A DNA stretch of 64,000 bases from Escherichia coli (GTDB lineage Bacteria; Pseudomonadota; Gammaproteobacteria; Enterobacterales; Enterobacteriaceae): NCBI RefSeq assembly GCF_011045215.1, contig NZ_CP049201.1; one strand, written 5' to 3'. Positions 3,457-52,579 of this stretch are shown here, piece after piece; within the stretch, counting starts at the first letter, position 1; every line of letters starts with the position of its first letter. A model generated the notes under the pieces. That model was not told where the DNA came from. It made no database searches and saw only the letters and a program-made list of their open reading frames with translations. Both the position numbers and the translations under genes were made by a program.

Positions 3457-3663
3457 GGGTAGTTAATATCGTGATTTAGCGAAAAATTAAGCATTCAATA
3501 CGGGTATTGTGGCATGTTTAACCGTTCAGTTGAAGGTTGCGCCTACACTAAGCATAGTTGTTGATGAATTTTTCAATATCGCCATAGCTTTCAATTAAAT
3601 TTGAAATTTTGTAAAATATTTTTAGTAGCTTAAATGTGATTCAACATCACTGGAGAAAGTCTT

Positions 3664-4653
3664 ATGAAACTCGCCGTTTATAGCACAAAACAGTACGACA
3701 AGAAGTACCTGCAACAGGTGAACGAGTCCTTTGGCTTTGAGCTGGAATTTTTTGACTTTCTGCTGACGGAAAAAACCGCTAAAACTGCCAATGGCTGCGA
3801 AGCGGTATGTATTTTCGTAAACGATGACGGCAGCCGCCCGGTGCTGGAAGAGCTGAAAAAGCACGGCGTTAAATATATCGCCCTGCGCTGTGCCGGTTTC
3901 AATAACGTCGACCTTGACGCGGCAAAAGAACTGGGGCTGAAAGTAGTCCGTGTTCCAGCCTATGATCCAGAGGCCGTTGCTGAACACGCCATCGGTATGA
4001 TGATGACGCTGAACCGCCGTATTCACCGCGCGTATCAGCGTACCCGTGACGCTAACTTCTCTCTGGAAGGTCTGACCGGCTTTACTATGTATGGCAAAAC
4101 GGCAGGCGTTATCGGTACCGGTAAAATCGGTGTGGCGATGCTGCGCATTCTGAAAGGTTTTGGTATGCGTCTGCTGGCGTTCGATCCGTATCCAAGTGCA
4201 GCGGCGCTGGAACTCGGTGTGGAGTATGTCGATCTGCCAACCCTGTTCTCTGAATCAGACGTTATCTCTCTGCACTGCCCGCTGACACCGGAAAACTACC
4301 ATCTGTTGAACGAAGCCGCCTTCGATCAGATGAAAAATGGCGTGATGATCGTCAATACCAGTCGCGGTGCATTGATTGATTCACAGGCAGCAATTGAAGC
4401 GCTGAAAAATCAGAAAATTGGTTCGTTGGGTATGGACGTGTATGAGAACGAACGCGATCTGTTCTTTGAAGATAAATCCAACGACGTGATCCAGGATGAC
4501 GTATTCCGTCGCCTGTCTGCCTGCCACAACGTGCTGTTTACCGGGCACCAGGCATTCCTGACAGCAGAAGCTCTGACCAGTATTTCTCAGACTACGCTGC
4601 AAAACTTAAGCAATCTGGAAAAAGGTGAAACCTGCCCGAACGAACTGGTTTAA
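3664..4653 (+). CDS. ldhA: Fermentative D-lactate dehydrogenase (NAD-dependent)
   Basis: 329-aa ORF MKLAVYSTKQYDKKYLQQVNESFGFELEFFDF..., NAD-binding GxGxxG (GVIGTGKIG); matches E. coli LdhA. Confidence 0.97.
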   Translation: MKLAVYSTKQYDKKYLQQVNESFGFELEFFDFLLTEKTAKTANGCEAVCIFVNDDGSRPVLEELKKHGVKYIALRCAGFNNVDLDAAKELGLKVVRVPAYDPEAVAEHAIGMMMTLNRRIHRAYQRTRDANFSLEGLTGFTMYGKTAGVIGTGKIGVAMLRILKGFGMRLLAFDPYPSAAALELGVEYVDLPTLFSESDVISLHCPLTPENYHLLNEAAFDQMKNGVMIVNTSRGALIDSQAAIEALKNQKIGSLGMDVYENERDLFFEDKSNDVIQDDVFRRLSACHNVLFTGHQAFLTAEALTSISQTTLQNLSNLEKGETCPNELV

Positions 4654-4763
4654 TCTTGCCGCTCCCCTGCAATCCAGGGGAGCTGATTCAGATAATCCCC
4701 AATGACCTTTCATTCTCTATTCTTAAAATAGTCCTGAGTCAGAAACTGTAATTGAGAACCACA

Positions 4764-5186
4764 ATGAAGAAAGTAGCCGCGTTTGTTGCGCTAAGCCTGC
4801 TGATGGCGGGATGTGTAAGTAATGACAAAATTGCTGTTACGCCAGAACAGCTACAGCATCATCGCTTTGTGCTGGAAAGCGTAAACGGTAAGCCCGTGAC
4901 CAGCGATAAAAATCCGCCAGAAATCAGCTTTGGTGAAAAAATGATGATTTCCGGCAGCATGTGTAACCGCTTTAGCGGTGAAGGCAAACTGTCTAATGGT
5001 GAACTGACAGCCAAAGGGCTGGCAATGACCCGTATGATGTGCGCTAACCCGCAGCTTAATGAACTCGATAACACCATTAGCGAAATGCTGAAAGAAGGTG
5101 CACAAGTGGATCTGACCGCGAACCAGTTAACGCTGGCGACCGCGAAACAGACATTAACTTATAAGCTGGCGGATTTAATGAATTAA
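4764..5186 (+). CDS. hslJ: Heat-shock lipoprotein HslJ (META domain)
   Basis: Track ORF begins at TTG 4752; ATG at 4764 gives MKKVAAFVALSLLMAGC... (140 aa, lipobox). Confidence 0.9.
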   Translation: MKKVAAFVALSLLMAGCVSNDKIAVTPEQLQHHRFVLESVNGKPVTSDKNPPEISFGEKMMISGSMCNRFSGEGKLSNGELTAKGLAMTRMMCANPQLNELDNTISEMLKEGAQVDLTANQLTLATAKQTLTYKLADLMN

Positions 5187-5449
5187 TAGCTGCCACAGCT
5201 CCCGGCGGCAAGTGACTGTTCGCTACAGCGTTTGCCGTTGGGTAATGCACACATCCCAATCGCCGTACCATCCAGTTGACGGGCAACAGAAAGCGAACCG
5301 CCGATCATTGCACAATTTGCTTCTCCACTACTCGACATTGACGCTTTTAAACCTGGCGCTACGTGCGCCGCAGTCGCCTGCTGAACAGGCTCACTACTAC
5401 ACGCCGACAACAATAAAGCGGCACACCCTACCCAAAACGCTGCTCGCAT
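5183..5449 (-). CDS. ydbJ: YdbJ, DUF333 lipoprotein (88 aa)
   Basis: 88-aa ORF with signal peptide and lipobox (LLLSACSS); convergent with hslJ. Confidence 0.85.
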   Translation of the reverse strand: MRAAFWVGCAALLLSACSSEPVQQATAAHVAPGLKASMSSSGEANCAMIGGSLSVARQLDGTAIGMCALPNGKRCSEQSLAAGSCGSY

Positions 5450-5722: not shown

Positions 5723-8700
5723 ATGATTACTATTGACGGTAATGGCGCGGTTGCTTCGGTCGCATTTCGCACCAGTGAAGTTATCGCCATCTACCCTATT
5801 ACCCCCAGTTCCACGATGGCAGAACAGGCTGATGCCTGGGCCGGAAACGGCTTAAAGAACGTTTGGGGAGACACACCACGCGTGGTTGAAATGCAGTCGG
5901 AAGCGGGTGCTATCGCTACCGTGCATGGCGCTTTGCAGACGGGTGCCCTTTCAACATCGTTTACATCATCGCAGGGTTTGCTGCTGATGATCCCGACGCT
6001 GTACAAACTGGCAGGCGAACTAACACCGTTTGTCCTGCATGTAGCGGCACGTACCGTTGCCACACATGCACTCTCTATTTTTGGCGATCATTCCGACGTC
6101 ATGGCGGTGCGCCAGACGGGTTGCGCGATGTTGTGTGCGGCAAACGTCCAGGAAGCGCAAGACTTTGCTCTCATTTCGCACATCGCGACGCTGAAAAGCC
6201 GCGTGCCATTTATTCATTTCTTTGATGGTTTCCGCACGTCCCACGAAATCAATAAAATTGTCCCGCTGGCCGATGACACGATTCTTGATCTCATGCCGCA
6301 GGCCGAAATTGATGCTCATCGCGCCCGGGCGCTCAACCCGGAACATCCGGTGATCCGCGGTACGTCCGCCAATCCTGACACTTATTTCCAGTCTCGCGAA
6401 GCCACCAACCCTTGGTACAACGCGGTCTATGACCATGTTGAACAGGCGATGAATGATTTCGCTGCTGCGACAGGTCGTCAGTATCAGCCGTTTGAGTATT
6501 ACGGGCATCCGCAAGCGGAACGGGTGATTATCCTGATGGGCTCTGCCATTGGCACCTGTGAAGAAGTGGTTGATGAATTGCTAACCCGTGGCGAAAAAGT
6601 CGGCGTGCTGAAAGTTCGCCTGTACCGCCCCTTCTCCGCTAAACATTTACTGCAAGCTCTGCCGGGATCCGTACGCAGCGTGGCGGTACTGGACAGAACC
6701 AAAGAAGCCGGTGCCCAGGCAGAACCGCTCTATCTGGATGTGATGACCGCACTGGCAGAAGCCTTTAATAATGGCGAGCGTGAAACCCTGCCCCGTGTCA
6801 TTGGTGGGCGCTATGGTCTTTCATCCAAAGAATTTGGTCCGGACTGTGTACTGGCGGTATTTGCCGAGCTCAACGCGGCTAAACCGAAAGCGCGCTTTAC
6901 GGTTGGTATTTACGATGATGTGACTAATCTGTCACTGCCGTTGCCGGAAAACACCCTGCCAAACTCGGCGAAACTGGAAGCCTTGTTTTATGGCCTTGGT
7001 AGTGATGGCAGCGTTTCCGCGACCAAAAACAATATCAAGATTATCGGTAATTCCACGCCGTGGTACGCACAGGGCTATTTTGTTTACGACTCCAAAAAGG
7101 CGGGCGGCCTGACGGTTTCTCACCTTCGAGTGAGCGAACAGCCGATTCGTTCCGCTTATCTCATTTCCCAGGCTGATTTTGTTGGCTGCCACCAGTTGCA
7201 GTTTATCGATAAATATCAGATGGCTGAGCGTTTAAAACCTGGCGGCATTTTCCTGCTCAACACACCGTACAGCGCAGATGAAGTGTGGTCGCGCTTGCCG
7301 CAAGAAGTTCAGGCCGTGTTAAACCAGAAAAAAGCGCGCTTCTATGTGATTAACGCGGCGAAAATCGCCCGCGAATGTGGCCTGGCGGCCCGTATTAATA
7401 CCGTCATGCAGATGGCTTTTTTCCATCTGACGCAAATTCTGCCTGGCGATAGCGCCCTCGCAGAATTGCAGGGTGCGATTGCCAAAAGTTACAGTAGCAA
7501 AGGCCAGGATCTGGTGGAACGCAACTGGCAGGCTCTGGCGCTGGCGCGTGAATCCGTAGAAGAAGTTCCGTTGCAACCGGTAAATCCGCACAGCGCCAAT
7601 CGACCGCCAGTGGTTTCCGATGCCGCCCCTGATTTCGTGAAAACCGTAACCGCTGCGATGCTCGCCGGGCTTGGTGATGCCCTCCCCGTTTCGGCGCTGC
7701 CGCCAGACGGCACCTGGCCGATGGGCACTACGCGCTGGGAAAAACGCAATATCGCCGAAGAGATCCCCATCTGGAAAGAGGAACTCTGTACCCAATGTAA
7801 CCACTGTGTTGCCGCTTGCCCACACTCAGCTATTCGCGCAAAAGTGGTACCGCCTGAAGCGATGGAAAACGCCCCTGCCAGCCTGCATTCGCTGGATGTG
7901 AAATCGCGTGATATGCGCGGGCAGAAATATGTCTTGCAGGTGGCTCCGGAAGATTGCACCGGTTGTAACCTGTGCGTCGAAGTTTGCCCGGCGAAAGACC
8001 GTCAGAATCCAGAGATTAAAGCCATCAATATGATGTCGCGCCTGGAACATGTCGAAGAAGAGAAAATCAATTACGATTTCTTCCTCAACCTCCCAGAAAT
8101 CGACCGTAGTAAACTCGAACGTATTGATATTCGTACATCACAGCTGATTACACCGCTGTTTGAATATTCAGGTGCTTGCTCCGGTTGTGGCGAGACGCCG
8201 TATATTAAATTGCTGACTCAGCTCTATGGTGACCGGATGTTGATCGCTAACGCCACCGGCTGTTCTTCAATTTATGGCGGTAACCTGCCCTCTACACCGT
8301 ATACTACCGATGCCAACGGTCGTGGTCCGGCCTGGGCGAACTCTCTGTTTGAAGATAATGCCGAATTTGGCCTGGGTTTCCGCCTGACGGTCGATCAACA
8401 CCGTGTACGCGTGCTGCGTCTGCTGGATCAATTTGCCGATAAAATCCCGGCGGAATTACTGACTGCGTTGAAATCAGACGCCACGCCAGAGGTTCGTCGT
8501 GAACAGGTTGCAGCTTTACGCCAGCAACTCAACGATGTTGCCGAAGCACATGAACTGCTGCGTGATGCAGATGCGCTGGTAGAAAAATCAATCTGGCTGA
8601 TTGGTGGCGACGGCTGGGCTTACGATATCGGCTTTGGCGGTCTGGATCATGTATTGAGTTTGACAGAAAACGTCAACATTCTGGTGCTGGATACGCAATG

Positions 8701-48508: not shown

Positions 48509-48909
48509 TCCAGAACCCTCCTGTTGAAATAAACGTAGTTATTCACTGTGCGCAACGGCATTCCGAATTTTCTGGCAATTTCTCTCCTGGACACGCCACG
48601 CTGATGCAACTGTCGCACCAGCTCAATATCGCTCTGCGGATATTTTGTTGACTGGTGATAATCACCACGCAACATCATGCCGATACCCAGTTCCCGTGCT
48701 TTCGCCCTGACCGCCGGCTCACTACGACCAATCAGACTGCCGATGCTGTCGACTGTCATCGTTCCCGCACACTGCCGGAGCACCATGATTTCAGCCCTGC
48801 ACCACTTCTTCCAGCCACTCACCGCTACCGTTCTCCGGTGGCGATAATCTGTCTGACAATATCCTTGTGCCTGTACAGTTCCCGCAGCGCCGCGCAGACT
48901 CGCTCCCAC
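48505..48909 (-). CDS. Hypothetical HTH DNA-binding protein
   Basis: C-terminal HTH-like segment ([22 protein letters not shown]); true start probably internal. Confidence 0.4.
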
Positions 48910-49571
48910 TTCCGGACATGATTTTTCGCCCGACGCAGTTCGCGGTTTGCCATATGCAGTGATGGTAAAACCAGGTCATCAGCTCGCGTTTCAGTAAACG
49001 ATGGCAGCGAATGCACAATGTCCGCCACAGTTTCTGTTTTAATATCTTCCTGTGTTGCAGCCTCCTGTACTGGTAACGCAACACATGCAGGTTGAGGAAA
49101 GGCTTTACCATCAGTTTCCGCTACCGATGCAGCTTTCGGCTCTGCTGGTAAATTATCGCCCGGCATGCAGTAACGAAATTTACCGTTCTGATTAACGCGA
49201 ATCAGACGACCTTTACTGATTGCCATTGCCAGCGTTGAAGCCACTTTGCGTGATGTGGTGCCGAAAAACGTAGCCAGTTCATCCGCCGTTTGTGGGCCAC
49301 GTTGTTCAATCGTCGCAGTTAAATCGCACTCCGAAATTTTCGCGACTGTTGCCGTGGCGGTTTCTTCCGGCAGTTCTGCCTGCTCTGGCTGTTCCTGCTG
49401 AACGTTGTTATCAGCCACACGCCAGGTGTATACGCTTTTATCAACGAAACCAGCCTTTTTCAGTTCCCACAGCTCGTTCAGTACCTCTTCACGACTGATA
49501 TCAAGTCGCGCAGCCAGTTCTACCGACGTGGCTTTTCCCATTGCTTTCAGTGCGTCAAAAACAGTCTCCAT
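48825..49571 (-). CDS. Hypothetical replication-region protein
   Basis: Track ORF 48825..49604; ATG at 49571 with GGGAGG upstream; directly downstream of the DnaC-like gene. Confidence 0.45.
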
Positions 49572-49593
49572 TAAAATTTCCTCCCGGTAAAAA

Positions 49594-50340
49594 TCACTTC
49601 GCAATTCCTAGCTGGACGACATTCGGACGCCAGCTCTCCCAGTTAAAATTCACCCATCGCCCGCCGTTCATGGTCATGCGATCCATAATCCTCTCGCCGA
49701 GCAATGTTTTCATGGCCTCATAGTTCAGGTTTGTCAGCATCCCCACGCTGCGCATCGACGCTGTCCGGCGATCAACAATCTGGTGCAGCACCACCAGCTC
49801 GTTTTTTGTCTCGCGCTGAATGCCAATTTCATCAAGAACCAGCAGATCCACTTCGCACAGTTCCCGCAAAAATTTTTCGCCTGATTTCCCGTCGTCATAG
49901 CTGGCGTGTAGAGCACTCATGACATCAGCCACGGTAACCACAATCACTGTCTGGCCATCTTTCAGCAGGCGATTCCCGATTGCCGCCGCCAGATGGTTTT
50001 TTCCGGTACCAGGTTTTCCGCTGAACGCAAAATTTGTACACCCGGTCATCAGTTCATCAGCGATAGATTTCGCCTGGCTCAACGCGTATCGCTGGCCGTC
50101 GTTCTGCACCAGGTAATTCGCAAACGAGCATTTGCGGTGCAACAGCTGGATGCCGGAGCGATTCAGGATTTTTTCCACCCGCAACTGACGATTCTGACGG
50201 TTGATCTCCTCACAACGTTTCTGGCCTTCTACAAGTTGCCACTCGCGCCACTCCGCCACCGTCCTGAATGGCGCGGTTACATGTGACGGGGCCAGTCTGC
50301 GGATACGTTCCAGAACGCCGCCTGTCGCAATATTTTTCAT
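49594..50340 (-). CDS. DnaC-like helicase loader / replication protein (AAA+), Rac YdaV-like
   Basis: 248 aa; Walker [16 protein letters not shown], Walker B LLVLDEIG. Confidence 0.85.
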
Positions 50341-50346
50341 GGTCAG

Positions 50347-51153
50347 TTACCCCCTGAAGCCTGGCGGGATCGCACTGTCCGGCAACGAGACGGTGTTAAC
50401 CTGTCGAGGCAGCATCTCCGGTCGAACGCCTTTCGGTGCGAACAAACCCTGGTATTCATTGGCGATGCTGTGTCGAATCACCTGCTCAGGGGTAAAACCC
50501 TGCTGGCGGAATTTTTCCAGTTCCCGTATCGCCCCGTTAGCGCCCTGCTCTGTTCGAATCGGTTTTCGCAATGCCTGGCGAAATTCAACCCACTCACGCC
50601 AAAGCGAGACAGAAATCCAGTTCGGCAAAGCAATATCCAGAGGGTCAAACTTTTTGACACCTCGATTCCCCCGGGGGGGATTTAGGGGGGGATCTGTTTT
50701 TAGATCTTTATCTGTATCTTTATTAGTTGCCTTTGTGTTGGCATCATGTTCAAACACTGCTCCAACTTCTGTTTGAACACCTGTTAAATTTCTCTCTTGT
50801 TTTGTTTGAACATCTGCTTCCTTTCTGCTTCTTCTGGCCTGAACAGATGCTTTTCCGGCGGCTGATTTTTTGGTTAATTTTTCCCTGACTGAAGCCAGAT
50901 CTTCCTCAATCCGAAGATGCACCCATTCGTCGCCGTTATCGCAAAAAAACTCCCGCAAGGATGGTTCAACATCAGCCCATCGCTCGTTAGTCAGACGAGC
51001 AATTTTTGCCAGCCTGTTTTTGGGTATTGGCTTTCCTGTTTGCCAGTAATTGAACATCAGCAACAAATACGCACCGTGCTCCTCTGCTGACAAATGCATG
51101 GTGTCAGCCAAGTAATCAGCTATGTACAGTTGCATATATGGTAATGCGGCCAT
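50347..51153 (-). CDS. Replication initiation protein (DUF1376 / Rac YdaU-like)
   Basis: Track ORF starts at TTG 51207; ATG at 51153 with GAGG upstream (MAALPYMQLYIADYL...). Confidence 0.6.
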   Translation of the reverse strand: MAALPYMQLYIADYLADTMHLSAEEHGAYLLLMFNYWQTGKPIPKNRLAKIARLTNERWADVEPSLREFFCDNGDEWVHLRIEEDLASVREKLTKKSAAGKASVQARRSRKEADVQTKQERNLTGVQTEVGAVFEHDANTKATNKDTDKDLKTDPPLNPPRGNRGVKKFDPLDIALPNWISVSLWREWVEFRQALRKPIRTEQGANGAIRELEKFRQQGFTPEQVIRHSIANEYQGLFAPKGVRPEMLPRQVNTVSLPDSAIPPGFRG

Positions 51154-51232
51154 AACTGCCTCATCTGGTGCCGAACCTTCCTCCGGATATAATCTGTGAT
51201 TCCCCAATCAACAGAACCAAAGGAGGTTCGAC

Positions 51233-51484
51233 ATGTCTTTTACATTTGATAAGTCTGCTCCATTCCCCCAAAAATTTTGGGTGGACAGTATTACTGGAAC
51301 CGAGTCAAAAATTTTTAGCACCTCAGGAATGCTCAATCGCGGAGGAGTAAAAATACTTGCCCAGGAATTCCATACACAGGAACTAAATTACGGGGCTTAT
51401 CACAAACTGGAGTTGATAATGGATGCAACCCAAATTGATGAACTGATCGTTGCCCTACAAAAGCTAAAAGAAAAGATGTCATAA
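51233..51484 (+). CDS. Hypothetical protein (83 aa), opposite-strand moron in the replication module
   Basis: ATG preceded by AAGGAGG at 7 nt; stop abuts the stop of a convergent gene. Confidence 0.5.
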   Translation: MSFTFDKSAPFPQKFWVDSITGTESKIFSTSGMLNRGGVKILAQEFHTQELNYGAYHKLELIMDATQIDELIVALQKLKEKMS

Positions 51485-51781
51485 TCACCCCCTAAAAATT
51501 ACGTGGCGCAGCGGTTGAGCTTTGCTGTAGTCGATCTCATCGCCATACTCAATATCAAGAGCTTGTCCCTGCGCCAGTTCCATCCACCGAATGTGATCTG
51601 CGGCTTTTTCTTTATCTTTGATATTGATGAACAACAGCGTTGACGAGGGATACCCGTTAACAAGATGGCGATGCAGAGAGAGTCGTATCGCATACCAGGC
51701 AACATTTCGGGCTATACGCTGAAGCAATGTTTCGGCTTCCAGTGTTTTAAGTCGGTATTTTTTCAGTTCATATTTTTCCAT
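51485..51781 (-). CDS. Hypothetical protein (98 aa), convergent with the 83-aa gene
   Basis: Track ORF starts at GTG 51787; ATG at 51781 with AAGGTG upstream. Confidence 0.45.
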   Translation of the reverse strand: MEKYELKKYRLKTLEAETLLQRIARNVAWYAIRLSLHRHLVNGYPSSTLLFINIKDKEKAADHIRWMELAQGQALDIEYGDEIDYSKAQPLRHVIFRG

Positions 51782-51793
51782 CACCACATCACC

Positions 51794-52216
51794 TTAATGA
51801 ACAACAACAGAATCGCCGGACGAACCGCCGCCGCTGAAATGCGCTTTACGGTAAACGGCCTGGACTGCGTCATCATGCGCATCAATTGCCGTACTCAGTG
51901 CGTCCTGTGCCGCAAGTAATGCCCGTCGTTCCAGGGTATCGAAGATGCTGAGTCGGTGGCGCAGCTCGCGCGGAAGGATTGCCAGAATTGCTGGGATCAG
52001 CTTCTGAATTTTTTCTCTTTGCGTTTTCGTTTCACCTTTCAACCAACGGTGATAGATATTCTGCTGATTGTTCCAGTCCTTGCCTGGTACCAGGGGCAAT
52101 TCGCCGCCCCCCTGGCGCAGATATTCTTCAGTAATTGCATTGGCTACCCATGCCTGCCCTTTTTCGGCTGCCAGGGCTAACAGCACTGATTCGATGTGCT
52201 CATGCCTGATTTTCAT
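51794..52216 (-). CDS. Rac YdaT-like protein (140 aa)
   Basis: 140-aa ORF directly downstream of the Cro-like ydaS homologue, same size and position as Rac ydaT. Confidence 0.5.
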   Translation of the reverse strand: MKIRHEHIESVLLALAAEKGQAWVANAITEEYLRQGGGELPLVPGKDWNNQQNIYHRWLKGETKTQREKIQKLIPAILAILPRELRHRLSIFDTLERRALLAAQDALSTAIDAHDDAVQAVYRKAHFSGGGSSGDSVVVH

Positions 52217-52475
52217 GAATCAACTCCTGTGCATTTTGTGTGTTAGTCTTACATCCAACAGGTAAACCATCGGTCGGATTCGGGTAGATATCAGGCCGAA
52301 GTTCATGAGGTGTAACCTCGAAATTCGTAGCCTCAGCGATACGCAATACCTTTTCGGGGCTTAACTGACTACGGCCAGTAGCTACGAGGCTAATCATTGA
52401 TTGCGAACAACCAGCGAGCGCGGCCAAACAAGACTGTCGTACACGATTTTTTTTCAAATATTCATCTAATGTCAT
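52200..52475 (-). CDS. Cro-like HTH regulator (Rac YdaS-like)
   Basis: Track ORF starts at TTG 52502; ATG at 52475 with AAGGTG upstream; HTH SCLAALAGCSQSMISLVATG; divergent from repressor. Confidence 0.6.
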   Translation of the reverse strand: MTLDEYLKKNRVRQSCLAALAGCSQSMISLVATGRSQLSPEKVLRIAEATNFEVTPHELRPDIYPNPTDGLPVGCKTNTQNAQELIHENQA

Positions 52476-52579
52476 AAGGGTCACCTTAGTAATGCCTGTC
52501 AAAATATTAACTATATTAATTTATATGATCAATACCCATATCAGTTTGAGATTATGAGTTGTGTTCATAAAATGGTGGT
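52476..52579. promoter_or_regulatory. Divergent promoter/operator region of the immunity switch
   Basis: AT-rich ~100-bp spacer between divergent repressor and cro-like genes; operator repeats not resolved by eye. Confidence 0.45.

Follow-up and report, generated by a model that had tools for sequence, protein, structure and literature searches.

A mobile convergent gene pair with a conserved 67-nt element, and its possible two-state expression, between ydaT-like and ydaU-like genes in Escherichia coli

Temperate phages carry accessory genes, or morons, at hot spots, such as bor and lom of lambda and the defence genes of P2 and P4. These genes are inserted between neighbours that adjoin in relatives, are exchangeable and rare among relatives, come as many alternative cargoes per site, and have expression signals that appear to be their own. 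Here we analyse a segment with this character at positions 51166–51793 of a 64,000-nt stretch of Escherichia coli DNA (contig NZ_CP049201.1 of assembly GCF_011045215.1; hereafter the window, meaning the whole of that stretch). The segment lies in the early operon of a Rac-like prophage, between a ydaT-like and a ydaU-like gene, and comprises a conserved 67-nt element and two small convergent genes, gene A on the plus strand and gene B on the minus strand, which is the sense strand of the early operon. In function it resembles a moron at a hot spot, and its antisense position is like that of the lambda OOP RNA. Compared to the described morons it differs in three respects: a terminator scan listed no plus-strand terminator-like site between or after A and B (51484–52546), the cargo is a convergent sense/antisense pair within an early lytic operon, and the various cargo types share the 67-nt element, which is read as a 5′ leader from one strand and is predicted to form an RNA hairpin from the other.

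The position of the cassette recalls that of lambda pO and its OOP RNA (and of OOP-BTP1), in that an antisense promoter, putative in our case, stands at the boundary between the CII gene and the next gene and is directed against pR. OOP is described as inhibiting cII through RNase III (cited in PMC7067206). Convergent transcription from pO, which occupies the equivalent position in lambda, reduces transcription from pR and has an effect on replication (PMC3985674). The OOP RNA, 77 nt long, is non-coding and ends at a terminator of its own, whereas the cassette encodes a conserved protein of 83 amino acids and has no terminator that we could find. The positional likeness holds at the ydaT/ydaU loci; in two of the loci that we compared (loci are numbered with the prefix L), L011 and L015, the element lies instead between cro and cII. 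A second comparison is offered by ECs1072 (family NF033230), present in O157:H7 prophages such as CP-933P, which resembles gene A in slot, orientation, element and ATG start. ECs1072 is an unrelated protein of 151 amino acids, and its gene shares 317 nt with that of its sense-strand partner, phrog_8304, in contrast to the abutting A and B; gene A gave no match to NF033230 (cut-off 70 bits), against 105.7 bits for the CP-933P-type gene.

In P22 and lambda, sieB/esc joins exclusion to a product that spares the phage's own development, under control by the sas antisense RNA (in part PMC7067206). P22 sieB/esc is a precedent for the pairing of exclusion with self-immunity, and its likeness to A and B lies in the proposed logic only: there is no sequence or structural kinship, and esc is made in frame from within sieB instead of from a convergent gene. 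The RNase III hairpins of T7 early genes and of lambda (N leader, sib) are intergenic and imperfect, ~60–65 nt long with ~25 bp and internal loops. Like them, the element is predicted to fold into such a hairpin on the sense strand of an early polycistronic mRNA, which is an analogy only, with no sequence similarity between the two. As in integron attC sites, an imperfect palindrome that folds on one strand bounds exchangeable cargo on one side; by eye, each of its outer arms (GTCGAAC...GTTCGGC) agrees with the R''/R' consensus (RYYYAAC...GTTRRRY) in 6 of 7 positions, and in one locus (L014) two elements stand in tandem. The element differs from attC in also bearing a –10-like hexamer, a Shine-Dalgarno (SD) sequence and an ATG, and in nearly all loci there is a single element per cassette. 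No integron integrase was noticed among the called genes and annotations of the inspected loci, in which no dedicated search for one was made. The resemblance to attC is probably superficial. On the features tested, the cassette is not a member of the OOP, ECs1072, toxin-antitoxin (TA) or integron-cassette families.

Gene A (51233–51484, plus strand) encodes 83 amino acids from an ATG that follows the SD sequence AAGGAGG (51220–51226) by 6 nt, and runs antisense to the early operon. Gene B (51485–51781, minus strand) reads in the same direction as the ydaS-ydaT-ydaU operon; counted from the ATG at 51781 it encodes 98 amino acids, and it begins 12 nt past the ydaT stop with its own SD sequence, AAGGTGA. 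The longest form of this open reading frame (ORF; 51485–51787) would give 100 amino acids from a GTG at 51787; the RefSeq start in E. coli 14EC029, to which the window DNA is 99.3% identical and where both ORFs are annotated as hypothetical proteins, is the ATG that matches 51781. The stop codons abut, with the TAA of gene A at 51482–51484 and the TGA of gene B (tca in the strand as given) at 51485–51487. The pair is flanked by the ydaT-like gene (51794–52216, minus strand), which matches the PHROG family of CII-like activators (E 4.5e-36), and by the ydaU-like, DUF1376-containing replication initiator gene (50347–51153, minus strand), which matches a PHROG primosomal protein family (E 2e-120). 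The original prediction, of an 83-residue plus-strand gene with a strong AAGGAGG and a 98-residue minus-strand gene with abutting stops placed between ydaT-like and ydaU-like genes, thus agrees with the ORF list, the sequence and the matches of the flanks. In copies from Citrobacter freundii and from a metagenome assembly both frames are intact, the changes fall mostly at third codon positions, and the ratio of nonsynonymous to synonymous substitution rates (dN/dS) is 0.21–0.34 for gene A and 0.08–0.14 for gene B. Because the frames are kept, dN/dS is low and third positions carry the changes, A and B are, by these measures, both real genes under purifying selection and more than chance ORFs.

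In the Rac prophage of E. coli K-12 MG1655, the ydaT stop is separated from the annotated ydaU start by 12 bp, in agreement with the original prediction, which called the two genes adjacent. A three-way alignment with K-12 and other prophages places the left boundary of the cassette just past the ydaT stop (51793), where homology ends, and the right boundary is the base of the conserved hairpin at 51166, ~12 nt 5′ of the ydaU ATG. The proposal of an inserted cassette is therefore borne out by the alignment with Rac; the extent first given to it, 51208–51793, has to be enlarged, the unit beginning at 51166, and the conserved 5′ element and the variability of the slot are additions to that proposal. 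The full segment is present in 18 of 5,426 complete E. coli genomes. Across loci the A+B pair adjoins at least four unrelated replication initiators: with abutting stops, it stands between ydaT-like genes and initiators that are DUF1376 proteins, DnaT-like or without a Pfam family, and in the two lambda-like O/P phage loci L011 and L015 it lies between cro and cII. The pair is kept down to ~37% identity, the stops abutting or overlapping by 22 nt. This distribution, in both the genome count and the cro–cII location in some phages, supports an accessory cassette and speaks against a conserved component of the replication module, the alternative for which the original prediction had allowed; with only 18 of 5,426 genomes carrying it, the pair would be dispensable for replication.

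Co-occurrence of the two genes was assessed by examining 139 element-bearing loci for B-family ORFs. Such an ORF was found in 27 of 29 A-family loci and in all three loci with a distant, 75-residue A-like gene, where it overlaps the antisense gene, and in none of the 104 loci with other cargo. In L018 and L019 a second copy of B is located beyond the element, on its other side. Judged by its boundaries and by this co-occurrence, the segment 51166–51793 is a mobile accessory cassette in which A and B move together.

The conserved element (51166–51232) forms, on the minus, operon-sense strand, a predicted three-part hairpin that ends 12 nt 5′ of the ydaU ATG, the ydaU-like SD sequence (GAGG) falling between the hairpin base and that ATG. 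On the plus strand, ~80 bp 5′ of gene A are nearly identical across phages with differing flanking genes and end in GGAGGTTCGACATG, a motif nearly invariant in 48 distinct element copies, most of it having been fixed by the search pattern itself. A putative –10 of gene A (51188–51195, plus strand) is a consensus match, with a perfect TATAAT at 51188–51193 and an overlapping TAATCT at 51190–51195; the TAnnCT pattern (T51, A52, C55 and T56) is invariant in 10 aligned element variants. The element always ends in an ATG that opens one of at least eight gene families. Its companion is the antisense gene rather than the replication gene: it abuts cII in the cro–cII loci and B in L018. Copies are present in 530 of the 5,426 E. 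coli genomes, mostly in O157:H7-type prophages, and in at least 120 IMG/VR contigs.

A covariance model, R1, was built on 12 element copies and found 90, which were aligned for a covariation test; the window element scores 86.9 bits. Of 57 pattern matches in species-representative genomes, R1 confirmed two (in Xenorhabdus and Izhakiella) and rejected 55 as chance. The element had no match in Rfam, and R1 none in lambda or K-12 Rac. On the operon-sense strand the minimum free energy of the hairpin is –32.5 kcal/mol (z –3.5). In the R1 alignment nine hairpin pairs show compensatory changes, and 91% of cells are paired across 44 distinct copies, compared with 85.4% in shuffles (0 of 500) and 35–52% in slid controls. 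About 100 cells are G·U on the operon-sense strand and would be A·C mismatches on the other, and the hairpin is the more stable on the operon-sense strand in 42 of 48 distinct variants. MAFFT with RNAalifold on 12 copies gave no double compensatory changes; covariation appeared only after covariance-model alignment of the 90 copies. We argue from the slid controls and the G·U asymmetry that the hairpin signal is real, and with covariation support on one strand the element qualifies as a predicted structured cis-acting RNA.

Two further occurrences of the element were recorded. In L014, two copies (1257–1319 and 1629–1695) surround a lone A-family gene with no B, the second (72 bits) standing at the usual place of B, which suggests tandem or exchanged cassettes. 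In PP818812.1, deposited as Actinobacillus phage vB_Apl-pPE4, 91 bp of element and flanking bases (8384–8474) are 97.8% identical to E. coli and adjoin a 'primosomal protein'; the host assignment is unexpected for a sequence of Enterobacterales type.

The ORFs opened by the element ATG fall into at least eight families. ECs1072 (NF033230; 151 amino acids) occupies 34 loci, phrog_4753 (97–99 amino acids) 33, the A family 29, and a family of 151–155 amino acids distantly related to ECs1072 24; the remainder are the 75-residue A-like family, a family of 78 amino acids, a BssS-like family of 83 amino acids and several singletons. The antisense gene faces a convergent sense-strand ORF, which starts past ydaT or cro, in the 75-residue A-like family as well as in the four best-sampled ones. 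The overlap is 269–323 nt for ECs1072 with its sense partner phrog_8304, 207–273 nt for phrog_4753, 233–236 nt for the 151-residue family with its sense partner phrog_37051, 176 nt for the 75-residue A-like family and 0–22 nt for A and B. The two named sense partners are independent PHROG families. For the ECs1072 pair, RefSeq has the antisense gene and PHROGs its sense partner; for the 151-residue pair this is reversed.

Synonymous-codon shuffling of one partner usually closes the other frame, and in four families both frames are open more than shuffling allows. In the ECs1072 family most values are ≤0.05; in the 151-residue and 75-residue families one frame per pair is ≤0.065 and the other reaches ~0.2 per variant; in the phrog_4753 family the per-variant values are weaker, and both frames are kept in four or five divergent lineages. 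Since overlap is the common layout at this slot, the abutting A/B pair of the window is, on this comparison, a non-overlapping version of a general convergent layout, and the slot, as its predicted cargo indicates, is a hypervariable accessory site for alternative convergent gene pairs, set in the early, pR-type operon of Rac-like and lambdoid prophages of Enterobacterales.

Several of the overlapping pairs merit mention on their own account. They occur among IMG/VR loci L022–L141 (207–323 nt of antisense overlap at the slot), with both frames conserved across divergent variants, and also at 4074–4529 (plus) with ~4213–4721 (minus) in L010 and 4084–4539 (plus) with 4304–4717 (minus) in L002. 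In strain 06-00048, RefSeq annotates the sense gene (phrog_37051) and not the 151-residue antisense ORF. These pairs represent an annotation conflict and are candidates for true overlapping genes. In E. coli O103:H2 12009 (L009 4077–4532), an internal stop has turned the ECs1072-family gene into a pseudogene, and the overlapping sense ORF of 169 amino acids is intact. The BssS-like cargo (cluster 7; L080, L140 and one more IMG/VR locus) is a full-length distant relative of BssS (NCBIfam E 1.6e-5, 24% identity), a chromosomal biofilm regulator; K-12 bssS has no such element upstream. With this cargo in mind, kinship of A with BssS was tried and rejected (hhalign probability 0.2%).

Profile searches of both proteins, which had been proposed together with the original prediction, yielded homologues of each and a family assignment for neither. 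Homologues of A were found down to 36% identity in a full-library HMMER search, and a profile search gave a B family of ~20 members within Enterobacterales (Escherichia, Citrobacter, Enterobacter and Yokenella), with a conserved motif, ETxxQRIARNxAWxAxR, and a nearly invariant C-terminus, VIFRG. Neither protein had a significant match in Pfam, PHROGs, PADLOC, NCBIfam or the PDB (the last queried with single sequences and with profiles), and no homologue of either came up by tblastn in a set of 50,697 sequenced phage genomes. The AlphaFold (AF2) model of A (predicted local distance difference test score, pLDDT, 74) has three long β-strands followed by a C-terminal helix. Its best fold neighbours are COMM domains, which share the β-β-β-α topology at E 0.08–0.2 and are taken as an analogy only. 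Also set aside were two repeat proteins (300 and 1,274 amino acids) as relatives of A, the matches (E ~3e-4 to 6e-4) being to low-complexity repeats; a fragment of A in a 253-bp Acinetobacter baumannii contig, P0011, too short for interpretation; and a likeness of B to the N-terminus of GmrSD/DUF262 (PADLOC HEC-05, E 0.0024; PDB 7p9k, E 0.93), seen with the single sequence and gone with the family profile. A separate observation concerns L012, where the A gene (5001–5243) is a mosaic relative to 51233–51484 of the window: the first residues and the C-terminal helix (QIDxxIxxLQKLKE.MS) are conserved, and the central β region is replaced (46% identity). As the adjoining B is 93% identical, this suggests that the middle part of A is variable and possibly target-recognising.

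The reading that we favour, and which we regard as evenly poised between right and wrong, is that the segment is a moron-type cassette with mutually exclusive expression of A and B and a bifunctional element. On the plus strand, the element would provide a –10-like hexamer, a strong ribosome-binding site and the ATG of the antisense gene; on the operon-sense strand, it would provide an RNA hairpin just 5′ of the next operon gene. Because the genes converge with neither spacer nor terminator, each transcript would be antisense to the other gene, and expression would therefore be mutually exclusive. In the lysogen, with the early operon repressed, A would be made from its own putative promoter; B would be made upon derepression of the operon or infection of a new cell. 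RNA polymerase coming from the early operon would have to pass through the A promoter, and upon derepression A would be shut off by promoter occlusion and antisense RNA. By analogy with the RNase III hairpins, the element may be an insulator or a processing site that protects the downstream replication-gene mRNA. More speculatively, A could be a factor of the lysogenic state that serves, for example, exclusion or defence or restrains lytic functions, with B as its partner or antagonist in the lytic state. In O157:H7 Sakai, ECs1072 in the same slot gave a growth-phase-dependent microarray signal in uninduced cells (PMC2241611), which is weak support for expression of the slot in the lysogen.

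Tentatively, the pair could belong to a class, not described so far, of interchangeable two-state cassettes carried by lambdoid prophages of Enterobacterales. A member of this possible class would hold a lysogen-expressed antisense gene and an early-operon sense gene, convergent, often overlapping by 200–300 nt as two coding frames and arranged for mutually exclusive expression, together with the shared bifunctional element, and would act in phage-phage or phage-host conflict (for example, exclusion with self-immunity) or in induction checkpoints.

Several points weigh against the favoured reading. The putative promoter of gene A is a consensus match only, with a weak –35 (cTGgtg), and was not listed by the promoter/terminator scan. 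Covariation was scored on an alignment that had been fitted to the model structure, a procedure that works in that structure's favour. An obligate cognate protein pair is difficult to reconcile with the presence of A without B in L014 and L139, and with the reassortment of A and B variants, as between the window and L012 (A 46%, B 93% identity); the divergence of A and B overall is still correlated (r = 0.76). In a lineage represented on 14 contigs, A is frameshifted and the B ORF is open as far as examined. The AF2 model of B is poor (pLDDT 53) and too unreliable for structure searching, and the model of A had no significant structural neighbour in the PDB or AFDB50 by Foldseek. In view of the reassortment and the A-only loci, our confidence in A as a lysogen factor with B as its partner is kept modest.

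Reassortment and the A-only loci would also be expected if A and B were unrelated accessory genes, independent morons that co-occur through adjacency in a block-recombining cassette, and the lack of a functional clue from either protein is compatible with this. We nevertheless consider independence unlikely: the co-occurrence persists to ~37% identity, through three 3′ arrangements (abutting, 22-nt overlap and 176-nt overlap) and in two genomic slots, B is found at none of the 104 loci with other cargo, and other cargo types at the slot are likewise sense/antisense pairs.

A role as a replication-module accessory, in which B would act on DnaT-type initiators or the host primosome through its VIFRG tip and A would regulate B, we hold to be improbable. 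It is suggested by the placement of the cassette directly 5′ of replication genes in most loci and by the C-termini: B ends in an almost invariant VIFRG, while host DnaT (C-terminus ...PDSQIPPGFRG), the YdaU-like product of the window (...IPPGFRG) and several unrelated phage initiators end in (I/V)P(P/D)GF(R/K)G, and DnaT residues 154–179 contribute to cooperative single-stranded DNA binding (PMC4132743). However, the likeness is one of three terminal residues, noticed after the fact. Moreover, O/P-type phages have the pair between cro and cII, and elsewhere it adjoins a module of HTH_36/DnaB type with initiators that lack the tail; its presence in just 18 of 5,426 genomes makes it dispensable for replication. 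The DnaT-like tail (...PD..IPPGFRG) was itself seen with unrelated N-terminal domains, at 50347–50376 in the window (YdaU), in dnaT of L021 (2979–3518), and in L004, L008, L010, L014, L016 and L020; the resemblance may reflect a shared tail for docking or oligomerisation, or chance.

Equally improbable, in our estimate, is that the plus-strand product works mainly as an antisense RNA of the lambda OOP type, lowering B and ydaT and so tuning lysis-lysogeny or replication, with the A protein secondary. Position and orientation match pO/oop, a promoter at the start of the gene after cII and pointing to cII, and with no terminator after A the transcript should run antisense into B and ydaT. Such a role does not account for the near-ideal SD sequence of A, its purifying selection or a frame kept to 36% identity, and the element is missing from lambda and K-12 Rac and so is not homologous to oop. 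An antisense RNA role would also be compatible with a function of the protein.

The original prediction had named addiction and exclusion modules as roles that tail-to-tail gene pairs can have. The pair may have an exclusion or conflict function, and a classical TA module would suit two small, tightly linked prophage genes, the more so as Rac-like prophages often have TA loci near the immunity region, such as relB/parE in CP-933P-like loci. A type II module is nonetheless very unlikely here. The genes are convergent and not a co-transcribed bicistronic operon, neither matches a TA or defence family, A is disrupted beside an apparently intact B in the lineage on 14 contigs, A-only loci exist and variants reassort, and B lies in a repressed operon, where it would be unfit for post-segregational killing. 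Finally, that one or both ORFs are chance open frames is hardly credible, since the absence of homologues in the 50,697 sequenced phage genomes and of any family match is outweighed by dN/dS well below 1 for both, by homologues with conserved motifs and lengths, and by ribosome-binding sites for both.

In the searchable literature we found neither the element nor the A and B families nor the convergent-pair slot described, and the gene that follows ydaT goes unmentioned in the papers on YdaT of CP-933P and Rac. If the favoured reading is true, a modular system, consisting of a portable 67-nt element and interchangeable convergent gene pairs, has gone unnoticed between the CII-type regulator and the replication genes in that class of temperate phages which has been studied best; ~10% of complete E. 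coli genomes carry the element, and the O157:H7 prophages that serve as models of the YdaS/YdaT switch are among its carriers. The cassette would then offer a testable case of lysogenic/lytic expression switching by convergent transcription, a new structured RNA family, candidate proteins for exclusion, defence or replication control, and several strong candidates for long antisense-overlapping protein-coding genes, of which annotation has one strand and RefSeq and PHROGs disagree on which. Were the class to hold, it would take in the locus of ECs1072, which roughly one complete E. coli genome in twelve has. Even as an ordinary accessory cassette, the segment corrects the idea that these ORFs are members of the replication module.

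Beyond the flanking genes, the neighbourhood includes ydaS-like and ydaV-like genes on the minus strand and a racR-like repressor gene on the plus strand. The YdaT box is the inverted repeat TTGATT-N6-AATCAA (PMC9986795, PMC11879457). At the apex of the element, the palindrome TGATT-CCCC-AATCA (51197–51210) resembles its half-sites with N4 in place of N6 spacing, and was considered as a YdaT operator. Binding there is doubtful because of the N4 spacing and because the palindrome is degenerate in the CP-933P-type element, which comes from a phage whose YdaT specificity is known. Readings of the element as a sigma-E, sigma-54 or LexA-box site were rejected by eye, the spacings being unsuitable. 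In the window, the YdaT-box pattern has four matches against 0.74 expected. A canonical box (TGATT-N6-AATCA) at 52207–52222 overlaps the ydaT start codon, as published for K-12 Rac, and a second N6 match lies at 49189–49204 inside a DUF1627-type gene (48825–49604). In L018, between ydaT and the antisense 75-residue gene (3547–3668), a GC-rich hairpin, CAGCGCATAC...GTATGCGCTG, has an A-run and a T-run at its sides. Read in the direction of the operon it resembles an intrinsic terminator, and transcription would need antitermination to reach the replication genes.

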